A stretch of DNA of 64,000 bases, from the NCBI GenBank assembly GCA_965230915.1, contig OZ246395.1, positions 472,935 through 536,934 of the forward strand. The letters run 5' to 3'. The position numbers were made by a program, and so were the translations under genes. This DNA is from an uncultured Candidatus Saccharibacteria bacterium. Its GTDB lineage: Bacteria > Patescibacteriota > WWE3 > 2-01-FULL-39-13. The notes beneath the pieces were generated by a model. The model was not told the origin of the DNA. It saw nothing but the letters and a program-made list of their open reading frames with translations, and did not search any database. Of the stretch, positions 12,442 through 56,069 are shown piece by piece (the first letter of the stretch is position 1; every line of letters begins with the position of its first letter).

Positions 12442-13044
12442 TTATGCCGCGATCTTAGCCTCAATAACTCGGTTATTGATCGCTTCGAGATAGTCGGTGA
12501 CGCGGTAAATAGCTGCAAGGTGCAACACAATACCAACATTCCGCATGACCGTTTCCAAACTTGCAAGTTGGACGCCGAGGATTACCTCCGTCGATTCTGG
12601 CGTAGGCGCACCTTCCTTCTTCACGTTTGGAATGTAGACGATGAACTGCCTAGCCGTGGTCTTATCGGGACCTTCGCGATAAGGTCCAAATACCACACAG
12701 TCCTGTAAGTTGCCGACGTACCCGGTTTCCTCTTTTAACTCACGGAGTGCAGCTTCGGCCGGTAATTCGCCGGTCTTCTTATTAATACCTCCGGCTGGAA
12801 ACCCAAACAGCACTTCTTTTGCTGCATGTTTATATTCCCTAACGCAGATAAACCGTCCACGTTCGTCCTGGGCGACAATTACAACAAAGTCGCCGCGGAT
12901 CCAGAAGTACCGGTCGCTTGTGACGCCGTTTTCCTCGACTCTTTCATATTGAATCCGAAGAAATTTCTCGTTTCCAGCGTCATCGCCAGCAAACTGGACT
13001 TCCCTGCTTGCAACAACTTTTGAGCCACTAAAAGCACTGCTCAT
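12442..13044 (-). CDS. NUDIX hydrolase (ADP-ribose pyrophosphatase-like); GC-rich gene
   Basis: Nudix box GGINKKTGELPAEAALRELKEETG (GX5EX7REUXEEXGU). GC content is visibly much higher than the flanks. Confidence 0.75.
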   Translation of the reverse strand: MSSAFSGSKVVASREVQFAGDDAGNEKFLRIQYERVEENGVTSDRYFWIRGDFVVIVAQDERGRFICVREYKHAAKEVLFGFPAGGINKKTGELPAEAALRELKEETGYVGNLQDCVVFGPYREGPDKTTARQFIVYIPNVKKEGAPTPESTEVILGVQLASLETVMRNVGIVLHLAAIYRVTDYLEAINNRVIEAKIAA

Positions 13045-19403: not shown

Positions 19404-19745
19404 TTATTCGCCAAGAATTTCACGCACGATTTGAATCAACCTTTTTTCAGAGTTTGGATCAGGAGAATTCGGGACAGTTTCATGTGGCCGGCCACCAGAA
19501 GCAAAAATAACTTTTTGGCCCATGGCGTGTAGTTGAGTCGCTAAATTGCGACCGTCGTCGGCACTCCGGATCGTTCCATCCAAAATAATAACGTCGAAAT
19601 CATGGTCGCCGCTGAGAAGCTTCTCGGTTAACTCAGGCGTCAGGTCGCTTTCAGACACCACCTCATAACCATAACCCTCTAGATATAATCGTGTAATTTC
19701 TAATTTACTTAGCCTGTCCTCTACATGGAGAATCTTTTGTGACAT
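19404..19745 (-). CDS. Standalone response-regulator receiver (REC) domain protein; GC-rich gene
   Basis: Acidic pocket (HVEDR), phospho-acceptor context VIILDG, and a conserved K (QKVIFASGG). No output domain, and no adjacent histidine kinase. Confidence 0.55.
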   Translation of the reverse strand: MSQKILHVEDRLSKLEITRLYLEGYGYEVVSESDLTPELTEKLLSGDHDFDVIILDGTIRSADDGRNLATQLHAMGQKVIFASGGRPHETVPNSPDPNSEKRLIQIVREILGE

Positions 19746-23964: not shown

Positions 23965-24001
23965 AAGTAACTTTTAGCACTTATTGTAAATACGGGCAAG
24001 T

Positions 24002-24439
24002 TTAGCCCTCTACAATCTTTTTTATGTGCTGTAAAACATTGCTCCAATTTTTTCTTGAATGCTCTAATGCGTCTTTATCAATGAAACCAACTTGCCTAAG
24101 TTTTAGTTCAGTTGTACCCAGCCACTCGGAAAGGCTAAAAGTGATTTCACTGTAGTTTTCAGGTTTGTCTTCGAGTCCTGTGAACCCTGACCAATATGTA
24201 TATTGAAAAACTTTTTCTTCTTGTAATTTTGTAATCACGCCCTTATCTTCGTATTGGTGTCCTTGCCATTCGCCTTTAAAAATTAACGTGCTGCCCTCTT
24301 CCCAATCAGAAATTGCATTTGTACCAAATAAGTATTGCCTAATGATATCGGGATTTATAAGAGCATCCCAAACTTTTGGAGCAGGTGCTTTTATTTTTAT
24401 TGAACTTTCTAAAATAAGGGATCGATCCATATTACTCAA
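24002..24439 (-). CDS. SRPBCC superfamily protein (AHSA1/Bet v1-like)
   Basis: Length and pattern (…VWDALINPDIIRQYLFGT…WEEGSTLIFKGEW…) are typical of Activator-of-Hsp90-ATPase-homologue/polyketide-cyclase-like START folds. Confidence 0.55.
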   Translation of the reverse strand: MSNMDRSLILESSIKIKAPAPKVWDALINPDIIRQYLFGTNAISDWEEGSTLIFKGEWQGHQYEDKGVITKLQEEKVFQYTYWSGFTGLEDKPENYSEITFSLSEWLGTTELKLRQVGFIDKDALEHSRKNWSNVLQHIKKIVEG

Positions 24440-24544
24440 AGAGTACTACTTATATATATGTTTGTCTAAATTTTTAAATGGAAAATTCTTTGCCGTTTGG
24501 GATAGTTTTAAGCTTGCGGCTTATTGCTACCCAAACGGCAGTGG

Positions 24545-24997
24545 TTATTCACGCGCACCTAACAACGGCATGAATAATTTTACGGTTTCTGTAATGATCG
24601 GCTCCTGTTTAATCGGGAATAAAACTGTCACATTCTTATTAGTGTTTGTGACTACTATTTCCCTACAAAGGGAGTCGAACCCAGTGATGGTCCAGTTTTC
24701 TGAACCATTAGGACTGATGCATACTTGATATGTTCCGAGTGGAACTTTCACTTTTGCATGTCCATCTTCGTAGACCGTAGCTCCGAGAAATACTGCCTCT
24801 GGGTCGCTAAGCGACGTAAGGTCCATTTGCCCGGGAAGGTAATCTTCCTCGCTGTCTTTTGTCCCATTCGAGTTGTCGTCGCTAAACAAGACGACCTCTA
24901 TTTGGCCGTGTTTTTTGCTTTCATTTGCAAAAACTGGCCTGGGAACCAATGCCATTAATAGAGCGATTATAAGCCCTATAATTATTAAGTTTTTCAC
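24545..24997 (-). CDS. Secreted single Cna-B/SpaA-like (prealbumin-fold) domain protein
   Basis: Signal peptide; the motif GTYQVCISPNGSENWTI resembles the xTYxLxExxAPxGY core of Cna B-type domains. Confidence 0.45.
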   Translation of the reverse strand: MKNLIIIGLIIALLMALVPRPVFANESKKHGQIEVVLFSDDNSNGTKDSEEDYLPGQMDLTSLSDPEAVFLGATVYEDGHAKVKVPLGTYQVCISPNGSENWTITGFDSLCREIVVTNTNKNVTVLFPIKQEPIITETVKLFMPLLGARE

Positions 24998-25066
24998 AAT
25001 TTGCCCCTTTCTTGGCGTCTGATTACTATAGGCTTCTTAGTAATATAATCCCATAATTAATGTTCC

Positions 25067-26947
25067 TTGTCAAACATAAAACCGCTTGATAAAAGGCTTT
25101 TTTTCACTAATAATATGTACATGCCCAAAAGAAAAATAAGGAAAAAAAGTCAGAAATTTAACCTGACTTTGCCTTTAACTGTTTTTGTCCTCGTACTTAT
25201 ATATTCCATTTATTTCTTTTACTACAGAAAAGACATATCTCCCACCCACGATCAAAAGGCAGTTCTGGCTGCTAAGAGTAGTGCAGTTGATGGAGACGAA
25301 ACTTTTGTAGCAGGCGAGGTAATCGTAAAACTAAAACAACCAATAAATGAATTTTCAAAAAAAACAGTTACCGGTCCTGACTCTAAAGCTGCGGTTATGG
25401 AATATGCTGGGCTAGATAAGACTAAATTACCTAAAAGTATTAATGATCTAAGCAAAAAGCATCACCTAAAAAGAGTTGAAAAAGTATTTCCACAAGCACA
25501 GTCACCAGAGGCGGAAATACAAAAAATGAAAAAGCAATTAAACGAAAGTTCAAATGCCAGAAGCAGCTCTTTTAAAGAGGATGATGTAAAAAAGAATGAC
25601 TTGTCGCGAATTTACAAATTCAAAATAGATGATAACGCTATTATAAAGGATGTTATTAATGAATTAAAAAAAGACCCAAATGTAGAATACGCAGAACCAA
25701 ATTATTTGGTTAGTCCGACTCTTATTCCCAATGATCCATATTTTTCAACTACAACTACTGCAATAAATCAGTGGTATCTAAATAATCCTGGTAATCGTAC
25801 TGGATATGTTAAGGGTGCAGATATTAAAGCCCTTGATTCATGGAATATATCCAGAGGATCAACAAGTATTGTGGTAGCAGTGTTGGATTCTGGTATTTAT
25901 TATAAACATCCAGATTTAGGCGCAGGTATCGGACCAGGTTATAAAGTAATCGGAGGATATGATTTTGTTAATAATGATGCAGATCCGATAGATGATAACG
26001 GTCACGGCACTCATATTGCAGGTATTATCGCGGCAAATATAAATAATTCAAAAGGTATTGCAGGTGTTTGTCCTAATTGTAAATTAATGAGTATTAAAGT
26101 TTTAGATAAATATGGTTATGGATCTATATCTAGAGGTGCGAACGGCATTTATTATGCTAAAGACCACGGGGCTAAAGTGATAAATATAAGCTGGGGTAAT
26201 CAAGTTTATTCTGAAACATTATTTGCAGCTATAAATGCAGCACAGCAAAGCGGTGTGATAGTTGTTGCTGCTGCCGGTAACAATGGTTCAAGCACAAAGT
26301 TTTACCCTGCAGCTTATACAAATGTAGTTGGAGTTGCCTCAACTGATCCTAATGATAAAAAGCGTGGAAGCAGTAACTTTGATGATGGTTCTAAGTGGGT
26401 AAATATATCTGCCCCAGGAACTGATATTTTATCTACGTCACTATCTGGTACTGGTGGACTATGTAAAAGCGGCAATACTAGCCAATACGCATACTGTAGC
26501 GGTACATCAATGGCCGCGCCAATTGTTGCCGGGGCTTTGGCTCTATATGAAAGTCTTTATCCTGTTTCTACTTCTGCTCAGGTAGTAGCATTAAGAACTC
26601 GTATCGGATCTGCTACCTACGCAGACAACATTAATGCTGTTAATCCTTCGTATGTTAATAAACTTGGAGCAGGTAGGCTTAACATGTGGAAATTTCTAAC
26701 TACTGGCACAACTTGGTGCGCAGATTCAGAATGGGGAATTAATCCTAGTACTCTGGGATATGTAACACCTTCAACAAGCCGTGCTGCCAAGTATTATGAT
26801 TCCTGCGATAACATATCGGCACCAATAGGTTTTAGTGGGGTTGGAGAGGTTTATTGCACGCATCCAACTTCCTCTAAAATAGCCTTAACAGCCCGTGAAT
26901 GTGATAGAGGCCAAGCGTGTGTTAATGGCGCATGTATTTATAGGTAA
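25067..26947 (+). CDS. Subtilisin-like serine protease (S8 family), membrane-anchored, with a Cys-rich C-terminal domain
   Basis: Catalytic triad contexts VAVLDSGIYYKHPDL (Asp), HGTHIAGIIAA (His) and GTSMAAPIVAG (Ser); N-terminal TM; an inhibitor-I9-like propeptide region; C-terminal ~90 aa with 8 Cys. Confidence 0.9.
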   Translation: MSNIKPLDKRLFFTNNMYMPKRKIRKKSQKFNLTLPLTVFVLVLIYSIYFFYYRKDISPTHDQKAVLAAKSSAVDGDETFVAGEVIVKLKQPINEFSKKTVTGPDSKAAVMEYAGLDKTKLPKSINDLSKKHHLKRVEKVFPQAQSPEAEIQKMKKQLNESSNARSSSFKEDDVKKNDLSRIYKFKIDDNAIIKDVINELKKDPNVEYAEPNYLVSPTLIPNDPYFSTTTTAINQWYLNNPGNRTGYVKGADIKALDSWNISRGSTSIVVAVLDSGIYYKHPDLGAGIGPGYKVIGGYDFVNNDADPIDDNGHGTHIAGIIAANINNSKGIAGVCPNCKLMSIKVLDKYGYGSISRGANGIYYAKDHGAKVINISWGNQVYSETLFAAINAAQQSGVIVVAAAGNNGSSTKFYPAAYTNVVGVASTDPNDKKRGSSNFDDGSKWVNISAPGTDILSTSLSGTGGLCKSGNTSQYAYCSGTSMAAPIVAGALALYESLYPVSTSAQVVALRTRIGSATYADNINAVNPSYVNKLGAGRLNMWKFLTTGTTWCADSEWGINPSTLGYVTPSTSRAAKYYDSCDNISAPIGFSGVGEVYCTHPTSSKIALTARECDRGQACVNGACIYR

Positions 26948-26967
26948 TTATTGATTGGATTTGTGTA

Positions 26968-27029
26968 GATTGCCGGAAAGCTAAGTTTTTGCGATTTTGA
27001 GTTTCGCTTACTTTTGCTTTCCGGCAATC
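26968..27029. terminator. Perfect 13-bp inverted repeat (ATTGCCGGAAAGC…GCTTTCCGGCAAT) between convergent genes; probable bidirectional terminator
   Basis: Seen directly; it lies between the subtilisin stop (26947) and the stop of the minus-strand GC-rich gene (27052). Confidence 0.5.
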
Positions 27030-27051
27030 ATCTAAAAACTAGAACTTGTTG

Positions 27052-28437
27052 CTACCTGCGAAGAGAAGGAAGATATACTTCTTGATCGTTTTGATCAGGC
27101 TGTTCATCTTCAGGCAGATTGGTCGGAATCTCCTTTGTGTTTGTGAACACTAAAAGACCCGTCTCGCCTTCTTTGATTTCGACAATTTGGCAAACCGCGC
27201 TGGTGGGCTTCCATCCAGGTGGGATAGTCTCGCATACGCTATAACTGCCTTCTGGCAGTCTTTTGATGTGCAAGTAGCCGTCGTCTGCCGTAACCCCGGT
27301 CGTCACAACCTGGGTGCTACCAGAAATATACACAGTCATCGTTATGCCGCTTTGCCCAACCTCGTTGCCATCTTTCGCGCCATTGGCGTTGAGATCATTG
27401 ATCTTAAGAAGATCCATATCCCCGCGCCTTTTGCGGTTCAAGAAAGTGACTGTCTCCGGCGGTTTTGGGGTTATAGTTACCGAGTAGCACTGTTGAGTAG
27501 TCGTCACCCAGCCAGGTTGCATATCCTCACAAAGTTGATGCGTTCCATATGGCAAGGTGAACTCGGTACAACCATTCTCGTCTGTGACCTTGGTGACGTC
27601 ATCATCTTTGGATGTGGTGTTCTTGGTCCATCTGATTGTCCAGCCTGAGAGGCGTTGTTCATCGCTGTCCGGTTCCTTGTTTTCATTAAGGTCCCAGACT
27701 TTGCAGGCAGGGCTAGGCCCTTCGTTGGGGTTTTGCGTATTGGTGATCCTACAGGTTTTGCTTTCCCCAGCTTTCACCGTTACGCTACCGTTCGAATCGC
27801 AATCTCCCGACCATGCGGAACCCGTGTAGTTGACTACGGGGTTTTCGCTTGCGGTGTAGGTGCCAGGGTCGACGTCCAGGTAGGTGTTGTTGGAAACTTT
27901 AACTCCGTTGATGAACAGTTCGACTTGATCAGCGGTTAAATTACCGCCGTATCCGTTGACCACTGTCTTGACGATGCGAATGTGGCCTTTTTGTGGAACA
28001 CATGGCTTTGGCAAGTCAAGTGTGACGGTTTGAGACTGCCCGCCATCTACACCATCGTCCCAATCGGCAATTGCCGTAGCACGGTATCGCGCGCTCGTAG
28101 TCGAACCAGGAAGAATCTCGTTGATTGTGAACGACCCACTCTGTTGTGTGAAGGCGCCATGATAAAAATAGTCGCCGTAACCAACATTGTTGATGTTCTT
28201 CTTGACGCCTATATCGCTATTTGAACCGCCAAATTGCTTTGGCTTCCACGATGTGAATGTGGCAGTGACTTTGTAAGTGCCATTTGTCTGGCACTCAGCT
28301 GTGCCGTCACCTCCAAGATTGTGGGCAAAAGCAGAAGGTGCAAAAAATATCATTAGGAAAACTGCCGAGACTGTGGCAATAGCAAGTTTGCTACGCCCAA
28401 GGAACAAGGCGAGGAAAATCTTAAATCTTGTCGACAC
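27052..28437 (-). CDS. Secreted multi-domain Cna-B / SpaA-like (SdrD B-like) repeat surface protein; strongly GC-rich gene
   Basis: Signal peptide. There are at least three repeats carrying the xTYxVxExxPxGW/Y core (GTHQLCEDMQPGWVTT; GSYSVCETIPPGWKPT; GTYTASENP…), each with paired Cys. GC content is clearly above the flanks. Confidence 0.6.
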   Translation of the reverse strand: MSTRFKIFLALFLGRSKLAIATVSAVFLMIFFAPSAFAHNLGGDGTAECQTNGTYKVTATFTSWKPKQFGGSNSDIGVKKNINNVGYGDYFYHGAFTQQSGSFTINEILPGSTTSARYRATAIADWDDGVDGGQSQTVTLDLPKPCVPQKGHIRIVKTVVNGYGGNLTADQVELFINGVKVSNNTYLDVDPGTYTASENPVVNYTGSAWSGDCDSNGSVTVKAGESKTCRITNTQNPNEGPSPACKVWDLNENKEPDSDEQRLSGWTIRWTKNTTSKDDDVTKVTDENGCTEFTLPYGTHQLCEDMQPGWVTTTQQCYSVTITPKPPETVTFLNRKRRGDMDLLKINDLNANGAKDGNEVGQSGITMTVYISGSTQVVTTGVTADDGYLHIKRLPEGSYSVCETIPPGWKPTSAVCQIVEIKEGETGLLVFTNTKEIPTNLPEDEQPDQNDQEVYLPSLRR

Positions 28438-28769
28438 AAGTGGCCTCCATTGCGAATGACAAACACGAGGGACTCAAGGTACATCCGAAGAGAAGTTATA
28501 TTAGTGTGACCCTTTCTTTGTTTATGAATTAATCTTTATATGACCGGCACGAATCAGCATATATCTAATCCCTGTCGGTCATACAAATCTCATTTCAAAT
28601 TCTAGTTTTTAATTTTAAAAGAACAAAATATCTACCCGCTATGGGTTTTATCTGTCGATATCTTCCGATATATTCATATTAATGTCAATTTATTTTTTAT
28701 GTTTTCTCTGAAGTGTTAAGGCTTAATTTTTGCCCTACTATCGAGTATTAAATGGGTTATTTCTTTAAA

Positions 28770-28844
28770 TGGAGCGGGTAACGGGAATCGGACCCGTATC
28801 TCTTCCTTGGCAAGGAAGTATAATAGCCACTATACGATACCCGC
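28770..28844 (-). tRNA. tRNA-Gly (anticodon GCC), encoded CCA
   Basis: Reverse complement GCGGGTATCGTATAGTGGCTATTATACTTCCTTGCCAAGGAAGAGATACGGGTCCGATTCCCGTTACCCGCTCCA. Confidence 0.8.
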
Positions 28845-28914: not shown

Positions 28915-29274
28915 TTATTTCTTCTTTTCTAGGTTCTGTTTTACCCTAAATTTGGTTATTTGCTTTATCAAAGTAGTTGGAATATTTTTATCTAGAGGGA
29001 ATTTTATCGTACCTTTGGTAGTCTCGAATTTTTTTAATTTGTCACTGAATAATTCAACAGCTTCTGAGCCGGGAAAGAAGCTAATATGATCTTTGAATCC
29101 TCCAAAATGCACTAAATTACCATTTAATGAAAAAGTTGGAATTCCATAGCTAATCTTTTCTGAAGCTTCCTGCGGCGCAACATCTTTTATTATTGATCTA
29201 ATTTCTGATAGTTTTGTTTGAATGTCTTTTGGGAAGCTTTTTATATATTCGTCGACAGTTTTAAAAGATTTCAT
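28915..29274 (-). CDS. DUF1801 (YdhG-like) domain protein
   Basis: Size and motif (…ISYGIPTFSLNGNLVHFGGFKDHISFFPG…) are typical of the DUF1801 family. Confidence 0.5.
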   Translation of the reverse strand: MKSFKTVDEYIKSFPKDIQTKLSEIRSIIKDVAPQEASEKISYGIPTFSLNGNLVHFGGFKDHISFFPGSEAVELFSDKLKKFETTKGTIKFPLDKNIPTTLIKQITKFRVKQNLEKKK

Positions 29275-29281
29275 TTTTAAG

Positions 29282-29356
29282 TGGAGCGGGTAGCGGGAAT
29301 CGAACCCGCCTCTAGACCTTGGAAGGGTCTCATAAAAGCCACTATACGATACCCGC
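29282..29356 (-). tRNA. tRNA-Gly (anticodon TCC), encoded CCA
   Basis: Reverse complement GCGGGTATCGTATAGTGGCTTTTATGAGACCCTTCCAAGGTCTAGAGGCGGGTTCGATTCCCGCTACCCGCTCCA. Confidence 0.8.
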
Positions 29357-48048: not shown

Positions 48049-48807
48049 CTACCGAAGGAGTTGTTTGGTCTTAGCCAAAAATGCCGAAAGGTATTTAACC
48101 ATCGTGCTACGACGCTGAAAAAGCGGCGGTTGGATCTCGATAATCGCTGGAACATCCTCCCCAACCTTCTCGCGAAGCGCAATGAGCATTGCACCAAGTT
48201 CGGTAAGCCTACCCACTGAAGCAAAATTCACCTTCTCATAGTCAGTGAGAGGTTGAACGTGAATCAGTTTGATAGAGTCGCTTGGCAAAGCTTCTAGCAA
48301 AGATCGCCAATCCAAGTTCGGACTACCATCGCGATGCTTGCGTCGAACATGCCTGGTGTCCCAACATAAATGGCCGCCTCCACTTGCAAAGTCAACATAA
48401 TCGGCGATGCTGAGACTGAGTTCGGGATGAATTTCGGAAACGCAATTCAGATCAGGATGTGTACCAGCTACATCATAAAAGTGATGCACAGAACATTGTG
48501 CGTTATCTATCCATCGCATCGTCTCACGACTGAACAATAACCAATTCCTGATGTGTGAGAGCTTTTTATCCCTCACGGTGTTCCTAATTGTCTCTATAAG
48601 GTGATAATATTCCCATGCATCTTCGTATGAGATTGTTGTCTCATCGAGATCTCTTCGAGCTACGTTCAAACCCCAGATAGGCAAAACCTGAAACTTGCGC
48701 CTGCCGGTAAAACCGCAGTCTTTTGCAAGTTCAACAGCCCGCTCATAACCCCACGGCCCCCAGCTAAAAGGAAGCAATGTGGCCAAACTAGTGCCATACT
48801 CTCTCAT
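48049..48807 (-). CDS. Hypothetical protein; GC-rich gene (possibly a TIM-barrel-like enzyme)
   Basis: 252-aa ORF with codon usage and GC unlike its neighbours; no motif recognised. Confidence 0.45.
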   Translation of the reverse strand: MREYGTSLATLLPFSWGPWGYERAVELAKDCGFTGRRKFQVLPIWGLNVARRDLDETTISYEDAWEYYHLIETIRNTVRDKKLSHIRNWLLFSRETMRWIDNAQCSVHHFYDVAGTHPDLNCVSEIHPELSLSIADYVDFASGGGHLCWDTRHVRRKHRDGSPNLDWRSLLEALPSDSIKLIHVQPLTDYEKVNFASVGRLTELGAMLIALREKVGEDVPAIIEIQPPLFQRRSTMVKYLSAFLAKTKQLLR

Positions 48808-54861: not shown

Positions 54862-55437
54862 ATGGTTAGCAACCGTTTACTTAGACATATATCTTTTATA
54901 CTTATCATTGTGGCAATAATGGTTACTGCCCCTTTAGTATCTGAAGCTCAAACAGAAATCCAAGAGCCAACTTCAAACGAGGCTGTAGCTTTAACAATTC
55001 CCAAAATTATAGATGAAAAACCCCTTAGAATTAGAATCGCCAATATAGGCATAAATGTAAATGTCGAAGATTCAGGAATCGAAAATGGCACATGGGCTGT
55101 ACCTGAGCATGCGGCTGGATTTGCCGAAGGAAGCGCCTATTTAGATGAAGAACATGGAAACTCAGTAATATTTGCTCACGCGCGCTGGGGACTATTTAAA
55201 CCGCTTATAGACGTTAAAGATGGCGATACTATCTCGGTTTTGGGTGAAAAGAATATGTACACATATAAAGTGACTTCGATAGAAAAAATCCTACCAGACG
55301 AAATTGACAAAATTAAGTCTTTCGGAGACCACCAACTAACACTTTTTACATGTGAAGGAATTAATGACGAATACCGACTCTTAGTAAAAGCCAAACGAAT
55401 AGATACATACAGTTTAAGTAATTCAGAAGTTATCTAA
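54862..55437 (+). CDS. Sortase family transpeptidase
   Basis: N-terminal anchor; His context IFAHARWG; catalytic Cys in LTLFTCEG (TLxTC); Arg (LLVKAKR). Confidence 0.75.
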   Translation: MVSNRLLRHISFILIIVAIMVTAPLVSEAQTEIQEPTSNEAVALTIPKIIDEKPLRIRIANIGINVNVEDSGIENGTWAVPEHAAGFAEGSAYLDEEHGNSVIFAHARWGLFKPLIDVKDGDTISVLGEKNMYTYKVTSIEKILPDEIDKIKSFGDHQLTLFTCEGINDEYRLLVKAKRIDTYSLSNSEVI

Positions 55438-55454
55438 GGAGGTGACTTTAAACA

Positions 55455-56069
55455 ATGCCTACTACTAAAAAACCAGAAGAGCAATCTTTTCAAGACAAGC
55501 TAAAAGCATGGTGGGAAACAGATACAGCAAAAGCTGTTGCTACAGTTATTGCCGTTTTATTGATTCCAGCCGCAGTTATTGCTTGGAATTATGCGACAAC
55601 AAAAGGTCAGGAAGTATCTAATGAGTTAGAAACAGCAGACATGCAGGAAACTAACCCAGCAGCTGAAGAAACAGCAGCTATGCAAGGTGACGAAACAAAT
55701 GCAAATGGAGCAGATACTCAAGCTATGACACCTGATCAGAACGGCGGATTGAACTTAAAAGAGACAGTTCAGAACGTAGTCGAAAAAATGCAACAAGGAC
55801 AGGAACCAGCAACAAATGAGACTAATACAAACGAACAGATGGCAAACAATACAGACCAGAATAATAGTGAAAATACACCAGCTGTTGGTGGTTTAGGATC
55901 AGTTGAAAAACTTCCAAATACAAGTTCTGTAGTTACATACACAACTGTTAATGGAGATAATTACTATAGTATTTCATTGAAGGTTTGTGGAAACGAGTCT
56001 TTCTACAAAGCTAATATGAGAAAAAATTACTTGAAAGTTGGACAAACTCTACAAGTAACCTGCGAATAA
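55455..56069 (+). CDS. Membrane-anchored low-complexity (Q/N/T/E-rich) protein with a C-terminal LysM-like domain
   Basis: N-terminal TM; C-terminus DNYYSISLKVCGNESFYKANMRKNYLKVGQTLQV fits a LysM. Confidence 0.5.
   Translation: MPTTKKPEEQSFQDKLKAWWETDTAKAVATVIAVLLIPAAVIAWNYATTKGQEVSNELETADMQETNPAAEETAAMQGDETNANGADTQAMTPDQNGGLNLKETVQNVVEKMQQGQEPATNETNTNEQMANNTDQNNSENTPAVGGLGSVEKLPNTSSVVTYTTVNGDNYYSISLKVCGNESFYKANMRKNYLKVGQTLQVTCE

Follow-up and report, generated by a model that had tools for sequence, protein, structure and literature searches.

When a single gene departs from the base composition of its genome, it may have been imported or it may be kept that way by its own lineage, and it is this question that the locus described here raises. 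The stretch analyzed, hereafter the window, comprises 64,000 nucleotides of contig OZ246395.1 (assembly GCA_965230915.1, positions 472,935 to 536,934 of the forward strand) from an uncultured Candidatus Saccharibacteria bacterium placed by GTDB in the WWE3 lineage of Patescibacteriota. The gene in question, here called the stalk gene, encodes a predicted secreted protein with an N-terminal tip, three CnaB-type domains and a short C-terminal tail (Table 1). A preliminary description of this DNA took it for a likely horizontal acquisition. The present analysis leads to a different view, which is held with moderate confidence: the stalk gene would encode a secreted WWE3 surface protein that is resident in its lineage, that maintains its high guanine plus cytosine (GC) content and that did not arrive by a recent single transfer.

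Base composition and relatives of the stalk gene

The difference in base composition seen by eye in the preliminary description (high-40s against mid-30s % GC) was borne out by measurement, with a GC of 0.496 for the stalk open reading frame (ORF) and 0.366 for the 64-kb window (49.6% and 36.6%). The gene is the most GC-rich of all 1386-bp stretches of the window (mean 0.366, standard deviation 0.030). Its GC at codon positions 1, 2 and 3 is 0.504, 0.448 and 0.535, respectively, and the comparison of third positions (GC3) with those of the 57 other ORFs in the window (mean 0.279, standard deviation 0.063) makes it a real outlier (z = +4.0); the excess lies mainly in position 3, with GC2 also raised (z = +2) and GC1 not. 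Specifically, third-position C rises from 0.15 in the background to 0.33 and G from 0.11 to 0.20, AAG from 0.20 to 0.50 and GAG from 0.17 to 0.43, with ACG, TCG and GTG also increased and all NNY codon pairs moving toward C. Since C- and G-ending codons are both more frequent, the shift is a general compositional one and not the use of a set of optimal codons. The GC excess extends over the whole gene, signal-peptide codons and stop included, and goes no further than the coding sequence, the downstream intergenic stretch having a GC of 0.356.

A GC3 excess confined to a coding sequence could also reflect translational selection in a very highly expressed protein, for instance a main subunit of the envelope or of a fibre. 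The uniform movement of NNY pairs toward C, the strong Shine-Dalgarno sequence (GGAGG, 6 nt upstream of the GTG start codon) and the enrichment in GC3 of a neighboring 150-aa paralog would agree with this. The increase in G-ending codons, however, is a compositional pattern; DnaK, Sod and cyclophilin, which are usually highly expressed, show GC3 values of 0.24–0.28 (DnaK 0.249, Sod 0.284), and 93 homologous surface-protein genes elsewhere lack a GC3 excess. Translational selection is on this evidence an improbable cause.

Homologs were sought exhaustively among 1.84 billion cluster representatives standing for approximately 15 billion proteins. The search returned 6030 domain-level relatives, just two of which aligned along their entire length or the greater part of it: P0031 (455 aa, 38% aa identity to the stalk protein) and P0090 (489 aa, 39% aa identity over stalk and tail), the latter encoded on a contig designated L002. 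Both came from the exhaustive search, word-indexed searches giving domain-level matches only, and a family-profile scan of GTDB genomes and JGI metagenomes yielded no further full-length members, the genome of the window and the P0031 contig being themselves unrecovered by it. The three proteins are mutually closest, with 187–264 bits among them and at most 134 bits to any other protein. Their relationships are mosaic in that the tip is common to the stalk protein and P0031 only, and in the stalk P0031 and P0090 are the closest pair (48% aa identity). Judged from these alignments, they form a three-member family restricted to this WWE3 lineage and diverging far faster than its neighbors. The placement of the genome, whose contig measures 945 kb, agrees with its DnaK, for which the best named matches belong to candidate division WWE3 (81–82% identity).

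The L002 contig is syntenic with the region of the window from 20.9 to 39.1 kb, the flanking proteins being 78–88% identical and the nucleotides 72–77%, and the P0090 gene occupies the position of the stalk gene, with a tRNA-Gly(UCC)/tRNA-Gly(GCC) pair directly upstream. This positional ortholog is equally GC-rich, showing a GC of 0.514 and a GC3 of 0.549 against approximately 0.30–0.36 in most of its neighbors; at fourfold degenerate sites the GC is 0.53 for the stalk gene and 0.57 for the ortholog. The GC comparison covers these two genes, P0031 being known by gene context and not by contig DNA. In five flanking ortholog pairs, fourfold sites were 32–44% identical, against 28–32% expected by chance, and are thus near saturation. 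Since the ortholog is equally GC-rich while the silent sites of the flanks are nearly saturated, the GC-richness appears to be maintained and specific to the gene; at such divergence, amelioration should have erased the GC of a shared ancient import. As a control, the difference in GC3 from neighboring genes (delta-GC3) was determined for 93 homologous genes with CnaB repeats from elsewhere. Its mean was −0.013, so the anomaly does not come with the domain class as such, and among the 25 control genes in AT-rich backgrounds the sole strong positive value was that of the L002 ortholog.

These results bear directly on a recent one-off import from a GC-richer organism, for example the host, that has not yet ameliorated. 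Such an event would account for the strong GC and GC3 outlier and for a codon shift that is general to G and C rather than limited to C, for the position beside a tRNA gene, and for the different gene content of the window and L002 between tRNA-Gly(GCC) and sodA; domain-level relatives with similar tails also occur in GC-rich organisms (the P0117 contig has 66% GC). It is nevertheless decidedly improbable, given an equally anomalous positional ortholog, nearest relatives found in WWE3-like contexts and not in GC-rich taxa, no closer donor among the 1.84 billion representatives, with GTDB and JGI scans giving matches at domain level only, and no integrase, att-like repeat or GC-rich flanking non-coding DNA at the gene. 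The earlier notion of a host-derived protein likewise received no support, and homologs seem for the most part to be inherited across the lineage. In terms of genomic islands, the locus has a compositional outlier beside a tRNA, but the gene is present at the related site, its closest homologs do not come from distant taxa, and neither an integrase nor a directly repeated tRNA 3′ end was found.

Recurrent xenologous replacement, in which WWE3 lineages independently take up alleles from an unsampled GC-richer clade with the tRNA-Gly flank as anchor, deserves more weight although it too is rather unlikely. It would explain a GC3 of approximately 0.54 in both alleles despite saturated silent sites in the flanks, an identity of 39% in the gene against approximately 80% in the flanks, the mosaic domains and variable island content, and it would be in line with the other GC-rich singleton genes of the window. 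No donor clade was found, however, in the representatives, GTDB or JGI, all three alleles lie in the same lineage-specific neighborhoods, and the GC-richness coincides exactly with the coding sequence. Two precise replacements would moreover be needed, because an S8 subtilase gene of native GC3 (0.17–0.31) separates the stalk gene from a second GC-rich CnaB gene, that of the 150-aa paralog (GC 0.428, GC3 0.444).

Some observations do tell against a resident gene of maintained composition. The stalk gene is the strongest but not the sole GC-rich ORF of the window, four others being present, and isolated GC-rich genes for cytoplasmic-looking proteins among them (Table 1) indicate that the genome holds foreign-looking genes. 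The shared GC anomaly comes from two genomes for which the DNA of the locus is available, and an unsampled GC-richer clade may carry the family.

For the resident gene that we favor, the most likely cause of a maintained GC would be GC-biased gene conversion or else frequent recombination among the alleles of a GC-rich pool, and mosaicism, extreme divergence and the variable island speak for either. Selection on the coding sequence is the alternative, favored by the sharp edges of the anomaly at the coding sequence and by the finding that both genes for CnaB domains with YLP-like tails are GC-rich and the S8 gene between them native. The locus resembles hypervariable surface-antigen loci (S-layer, pilin and flagellin cassettes) in its flanks of approximately 80% identity around a gene of 39%, its mosaic domains and its variable neighbors. 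Such cassettes are usually lower than or equal to their genome in GC, whereas the GC3 of the stalk gene is roughly doubled in both genomes.

Architecture and predicted bonds of the stalk protein

The signal peptide reported in the preliminary description is supported by inspection of the sequence and by a helix at residues 2–30 in an AlphaFold2 (AF2) model. Cleavage is predicted before H39, at an Ala-x-Ala/His junction that inspection also found in P0031, and would leave a mature protein of approximately 423 residues after Ala38. The tip that follows (approximately 110 residues) has no Pfam match; it shares 37% aa identity with that of P0031 and is replaced in P0090 by an unrelated longer domain. 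Three stalk domains, D1 to D3, come next. Pfam places SpaA_2 at residues 150–231 (34.3 bits, gathering cut-off 25) and SdrD_B (44.4 bits, cut-off 29.7; E-value 2.2e-11 for D2/D3) and SpaA (41.9 bits, cut-off 23.1) at approximately 347–434 with a second, weaker stretch. D2 and D3 are paralogous (31% aa identity) and D1 is of a different subtype. With these matches above the cut-offs and ten cysteines at conserved positions, a number that fits five disulfides, the repeated CnaB/SpaA modules with paired cysteines first read from the translation were recovered.

From the single sequence, AF2 gave a mean predicted local distance difference test (pLDDT) score of 38, and a hand-built 49-row alignment of homologous domain segments was used instead, which raised it to 85. 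Ten-residue blocks between 150 and 435 mostly scored 90–98, one exception being a loop near 271–280 (pLDDT 74). The model comprises the N-terminal helix, a sandwich at approximately 40–146, three beta-sandwich domains and a disordered tail. In a Foldseek comparison with the PDB, the best match was the Bacillus anthracis TIE protein BaTIE (6fwv, E 1e-17), followed in order by SdrD, GBS52, Cna B-repeats, T-antigen, SpaA, BcpA and RrgB, with a probability of 1.00 for 6fwv, 10ps, 3phs, 1d2p and the pilins. As modeled, the stalk protein has the prealbumin-like/CnaB beta-sandwich fold.

The search for isopeptide-forming Lys/Asn/Glu triads proposed in the preliminary description identified a candidate in each of D1, D2 and D3, with the Lys in the first strand, the Glu in a Y-x-x-x-E strand and the Asn in the last strand, and all nine residues are invariant across the three family members. 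Alignments and model lack the initiator residue, so the true residue number is the alignment number plus 1. A phmmer alignment pairs N334, K345, E403 and N433 with BaTIE Asp464, Lys475, Glu524 and Asn373, respectively, which form or catalyse intramolecular isopeptide bonds in the crystal structure (PMC6194298). D1 to D3 are probably each locked by an intramolecular isopeptide bond. As a separate observation on the published structure, the “YKE” strand of BaTIE's second isopeptide domain has its Glu by position at residue 433 (49 after Lys384, as in domain 3), where the text of PMC6194298 has Glu443; a numbering slip on either side is possible and leaves the conclusions unaffected.

The stalk protein shares with characterized CnaB isopeptide proteins (BaTIE 6fwv, Cna 1d2p, GBS52 and SpaA/BcpA/RrgB; PF17802, PF19403) the same fold, with Foldseek E-values from 1e-17 to 1e-8, the Lys-Glu-Asn triads, and the order of N-terminal signal peptide, distal tip and tandem stalk. 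It differs from them in its extra conserved cysteine pairs, its host in the Candidate Phyla Radiation (CPR) and its short YLP-like end, and in lacking an LPXTG motif, a membrane helix, a basic tail, a pilin motif and a thioester domain. Similarity to the TIE protein 6fwv is limited to the isopeptide domains, the N-terminal domain of the stalk protein having no Cys-Gln thioester. D2 and D3 resemble the B-domains of SdrD, one of the microbial surface components recognizing adhesive matrix molecules (PF17210; 4jdz, 10ps), in their SdrD_B match and in loops of the D-x-N-x-N-G-x-x-D-x-x-E type (D-x-N-x-N...D-x-x-E) that align with those of B1/B2. SdrD, however, has Val/Trp at the position of the strand-A Lys, and the stalk protein has no A-domain, SD repeat or LPXTG and scores 22.8 on NCBIfam NF012181, against a cut-off of 2500.

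Table 1. Coordinates of the stalk gene, its protein segments and other features of the window.
Feature	Position	Strand	Description
Stalk gene, coding sequence	27052..28437	-	461 aa, predicted secreted stalk protein; stop at 27052..27054
Predicted signal peptide, residues 1-38	28324..28437	-	basic n-region, hydrophobic core, A36-F37-A38
N-terminal tip, residues 39-148	27994..28323	-	modeled seven-strand beta-sandwich; Cys49, Cys146
D1, residues 149-238	27724..27993	-	Pfam SpaA_2, prealbumin-like; putative triad K157/E198/N233; Cys213, Cys229
D2, residues 239-338	27424..27723	-	CnaB/SdrD_B-like; putative triad K246/E304/N334; Cys245, Cys290, Cys303, Cys317
D3, residues 339-436	27130..27423	-	SdrD_B/SpaA; putative triad K345/E403/N433; Cys402, Cys416
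C-terminal tail, residues 437-461	27055..27129	-	P-T-x-L-P-[ED], disordered Pro/Gln/acidic linker, V-Y-L-P-S-L-R-R end
Upstream spacer	28438..28769	-	332 bp, GC 0.325; holds GGAGG ribosome-binding site
tRNA-Gly(GCC)	28770..28844	-	conserved left-hand boundary of the variable island; also precedes the L002 ortholog
tRNA-Gly(UCC)	29282..29356	-	upstream partner of tRNA-Gly(GCC)
Hairpin between convergent genes	26968..27029	.	17-nt arms, 28-nt loop, -31 kcal/mol, z = -8
S8 subtilase	25067..26947	+	626 aa, convergent with the stalk gene; membrane anchor, fervidolysin-like prodomain
Single-domain paralog of D2/D3	24545..24997	-	150 aa, predicted secreted; BLASTP 2e-7
Sortase gene	54862..55437	+	26 kb from the stalk gene and unlinked to it
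NUDIX protein	12442..13044	-	GC 0.496, GC3 0.507; looks cytoplasmic
252-aa protein	48049..48807	-	no Pfam match; GC 0.472; looks cytoplasmic
113-aa receiver-domain-like protein	19404..19745	-	GC 0.447; looks cytoplasmic

The C-terminal tail as a candidate sorting element

The stalk protein ends in ...KEIPTNLPEDEQPDQNDQEVYLPSLRR and the two other family members in ...PPTALPDGPPPSQPSRVFIPSIISND and ...PPTALPEQPQPPFGFQMYVPSISN. Two boxes are kept in the three orthologs, P-T-x-L-P-[ED] and [VM]-[YF]-[LIV]-P-S-[LI], and the linker between them is not conserved. A regular-expression scan of all ORFs in the window agreed with the earlier remark that the protein has no obvious LPXTG; a C-terminal membrane helix is absent as well. 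The pattern [FY][LIVM]Px[LIVMT] was found within 15 residues of the C-terminus in 13 of 164 homologs, as compared with 0.26 expected from its internal frequency, an approximately 50-fold C-terminal enrichment (P ~4e-18). Other homologs have a terminal LPXTG motif followed by a membrane helix, and others again have tails that resemble, by inspection, those of type IX secretion system (T9SS) C-terminal domains or PEP-CTERM proteins. Since the YLP-like motif occupies the same position as the LPXTG and T9SS-like ends, it appears to fill the sorting or anchoring slot, and we infer from this that the YLPSL tail is an envelope-attachment or sorting element.

NCBIfam describes a “YLP-box putative sorting motif” in two models, NF050076 (sort_motif_YLP) and NF053834 (ultrashort_CTERM). 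The tail of the stalk protein has the [YF][LIVM]P hydrophobic motif within approximately 10 residues of the end and no membrane helix (VYLPSLRR at the terminus). Of two Chloroflexota tails, that at locus L023 scored 17.2 on NF050076 (cut-off 15) and 15.5 on NF053834 (cut-off 10), and that at locus L017 scored 14.6 and 14.2, below the first cut-off and above the second. Neither model reported a match for the tails of the stalk protein, of P0031 and P0090 or of the 150-aa paralog; four more YLP-like tails were also unmatched, the models being narrow and HMMER filters dropping weak short matches. The tail is accordingly called here a YLP-like variant, its membership of the NCBIfam YLP-box group being unproven. 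A literature search for “YLP-box” or Chloroflexi sorting signals found nothing relevant. Like the YLP-box proteins of Anaerolineae/Chloroflexota, the family combines an extreme C-terminal [YF][LIV]P.. motif with preceding SpaA_2/CnaB-type domains, has no membrane helix and occurs as several proteins per locus. It is distinguished from them by Ser in place of Leu after the Pro (YLPSL, FIPSI, YVPSI), by the ends RR, SND and SN, and by the upstream PTxLP[ED] box with its 10-residue linker.

Could the protein nonetheless be a sortase substrate, that is, a pilin or wall-anchored adhesin with a degenerate signal? CnaB/SpaA domains are typical of such proteins, a sortase is encoded in the window, as the preliminary description had noted, and L-P-x motifs are present in the tail (LPED, LPSL); in the homolog P0085, the YMPIL end is closely preceded by LPPTG. 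With neither LPXTG nor a membrane span after the motif, no pilin YPKN motif, a score of 22.4 bits on the NCBIfam model for SpaH/EbpB LPXTG-anchored major pilins (cut-off 95) and a distant, unlinked sortase gene (Table 1), processing by this sortase is very improbable. The sortase gene itself is preceded by a gene for a PolX/PHP DNA polymerase and followed (region 54862..56069, +) by a 204-aa ORF with LPNTS approximately 50 residues before its end; no membrane helix lies past LPNTS, and this ORF is not a canonical substrate.

In the course of these comparisons, a common four-gene operon was noted in three loci of Anaerolineae/Chloroflexota metagenome-assembled genomes (L017 6834..17672, L023 7682..17700 and L044 3..10071). 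Its four products are a protein with the end ...ELDGYNNG...DW(T/S)W..., one of approximately 490–530 aa with a beta-propeller, SpaA_2 and a YLP-box end, one of approximately 570 aa anchored in the membrane at its C-terminus, and one of approximately 1850 aa with DUF7507 repeats and the end ...F(L/I)PLL(L/M)R. This operon is possibly a YLP-box surface-structure locus. No dedicated sorting enzyme was found beside the Anaerolineae YLP-box genes, where only beta-propeller and DUF7507 surface proteins are encoded. Another conserved C-terminal region, ...(L/F)DAYNNSGD...GSATP..S....A...FW(N/D)xP, which closes the protein, was present in about a dozen giant CnaB-repeat homologs (P0004, P0026, P0029, P0057, P0066, P0081, P0094, P0101, P0104, P0111, P0154 and P0159) and may be a further C-terminal anchoring module.

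Surrounding DNA, proposed function and significance

The AT-rich spacer of approximately 330 bp and the tRNA-Gly gene described upstream of the stalk gene were both found. The spacer holds a weak promoter-like site (28719 to 28692) and shows no nucleotide homology to the equivalent L002 spacer. On the other side, the supposed bidirectional terminator is a genuine hairpin by RNA folding but lacks a U-tract on both strands, and it is for this reason not a canonical intrinsic terminator. No integrase or mobility gene lies beside the stalk gene, whose neighbors encode S8, AHSA1-like, DUF1801 and Sod proteins, and the window contains no template/variable pair of the diversity-generating-retroelement type and no second copy of the gene. 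Att-like repeats flanking the gene beyond chance were also absent, the only repeat of the tRNA being the second tRNA-Gly. A 16-nt inverted repeat (94%; 27033..27048 / 28596..28611) and a 16-nt direct repeat (88%; 27053..27068 / 28480..28495) bracket the gene almost exactly, at what is estimated to be chance frequency for 6 kb of AT-rich DNA. A DUF1801 gene (28915..29274, -) lies between the two tRNA-Gly genes, which in L002 are 88 bp apart.

Nucleotide homology between the window and L002 is lost from tRNA-Gly(GCC) to sodA. In the window, the resulting island (23985..28770) contains the stalk gene, the S8 subtilase gene, the gene for the 150-aa paralog and an AHSA1/SRPBCC-like gene, and in L002 (5800..9581) it contains just the ortholog and a gene for a 597-aa Thy1 (ThyX)-domain protein. 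The S8 subtilase has an N-terminal anchor and a Cys-rich C-terminal extension of approximately 110 residues. The 150-aa paralog, divergently encoded from it, has the same kind of tail as the stalk protein (...KLFMPLLGARE) and no K/E/N triad. The P0031 contig carries the same gene set in another order, namely DUF1801, two S8 genes, a 142-aa gene and P0031.

Taken together, these features would fit a protein exported to the cell surface by the Sec pathway, as its signal peptide predicts. Its three CnaB-type domains, if isopeptide-locked, would make a rigid stalk, in which D2 and D3 carry acidic loops of the calcium-binding type, and the stalk would present the variable N-terminal beta-sandwich as a likely ligand-binding or contact tip. 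The disordered Pro/acidic linker (approximately 25 residues) and the YLP-like motif may then hold or sort the protein without a sortase. The gene would evolve by domain mosaicism in a hypervariable island reaching from tRNA-Gly(GCC) to sodA. The S8 subtilase and the same-tail 150-aa paralog may act together with the stalk protein, the link to the protease being weak and both the role of S8 and the tail mechanism speculative. Three points stand against this scheme: the triads were placed by alignment, the geometry in the model forming no part of the evidence, the tail of the stalk protein drew no reported match from the NCBIfam YLP models, and S8 is adjacent neither to the L002 ortholog nor to the Anaerolineae YLP-box genes, an S8 match occurring at just 1 of approximately 100 homolog loci.

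A bolder proposal, which on present evidence is a long shot, is that YLP-tailed CnaB stalks and a membrane-anchored S8 protease constitute a WWE3/CPR module for a sortase-free fibre or adhesin, the tail serving as a protease-recognized sorting signal or as a donor strand, and that a gene-specific process, for example GC-biased conversion at a recombination hot spot, keeps its genes GC-rich. If true, this would be a rare clean case in bacteria in which biased conversion prevails over mutational bias even at saturated divergence.

Both the fold and the principle of a stalk are familiar. What is new or unusual is the CPR host, a family of three sequences among 1.84 billion representatives, the YLPS tail with its PTxLP box and, above all, the conserved doubling of GC3 confined to the coding sequence across saturated divergence. 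The locus thus lends itself to testing biased gene conversion against selection in very AT-rich small genomes, and it calls for caution with composition-based transfer calls, an extreme GC3 outlier beside a tRNA being here probably a long-standing resident of its lineage. The tail motif links CPR proteins to the uncharacterized “YLP-box” proteins of Chloroflexota. An attached life on other cells is assumed for CPR/Patescibacteria, and their attachment proteins are almost uncharacterized; with its variable tip, three probable isopeptide-locked domains and non-LPXTG end, the stalk protein offers a compact candidate for such an attachment protein.

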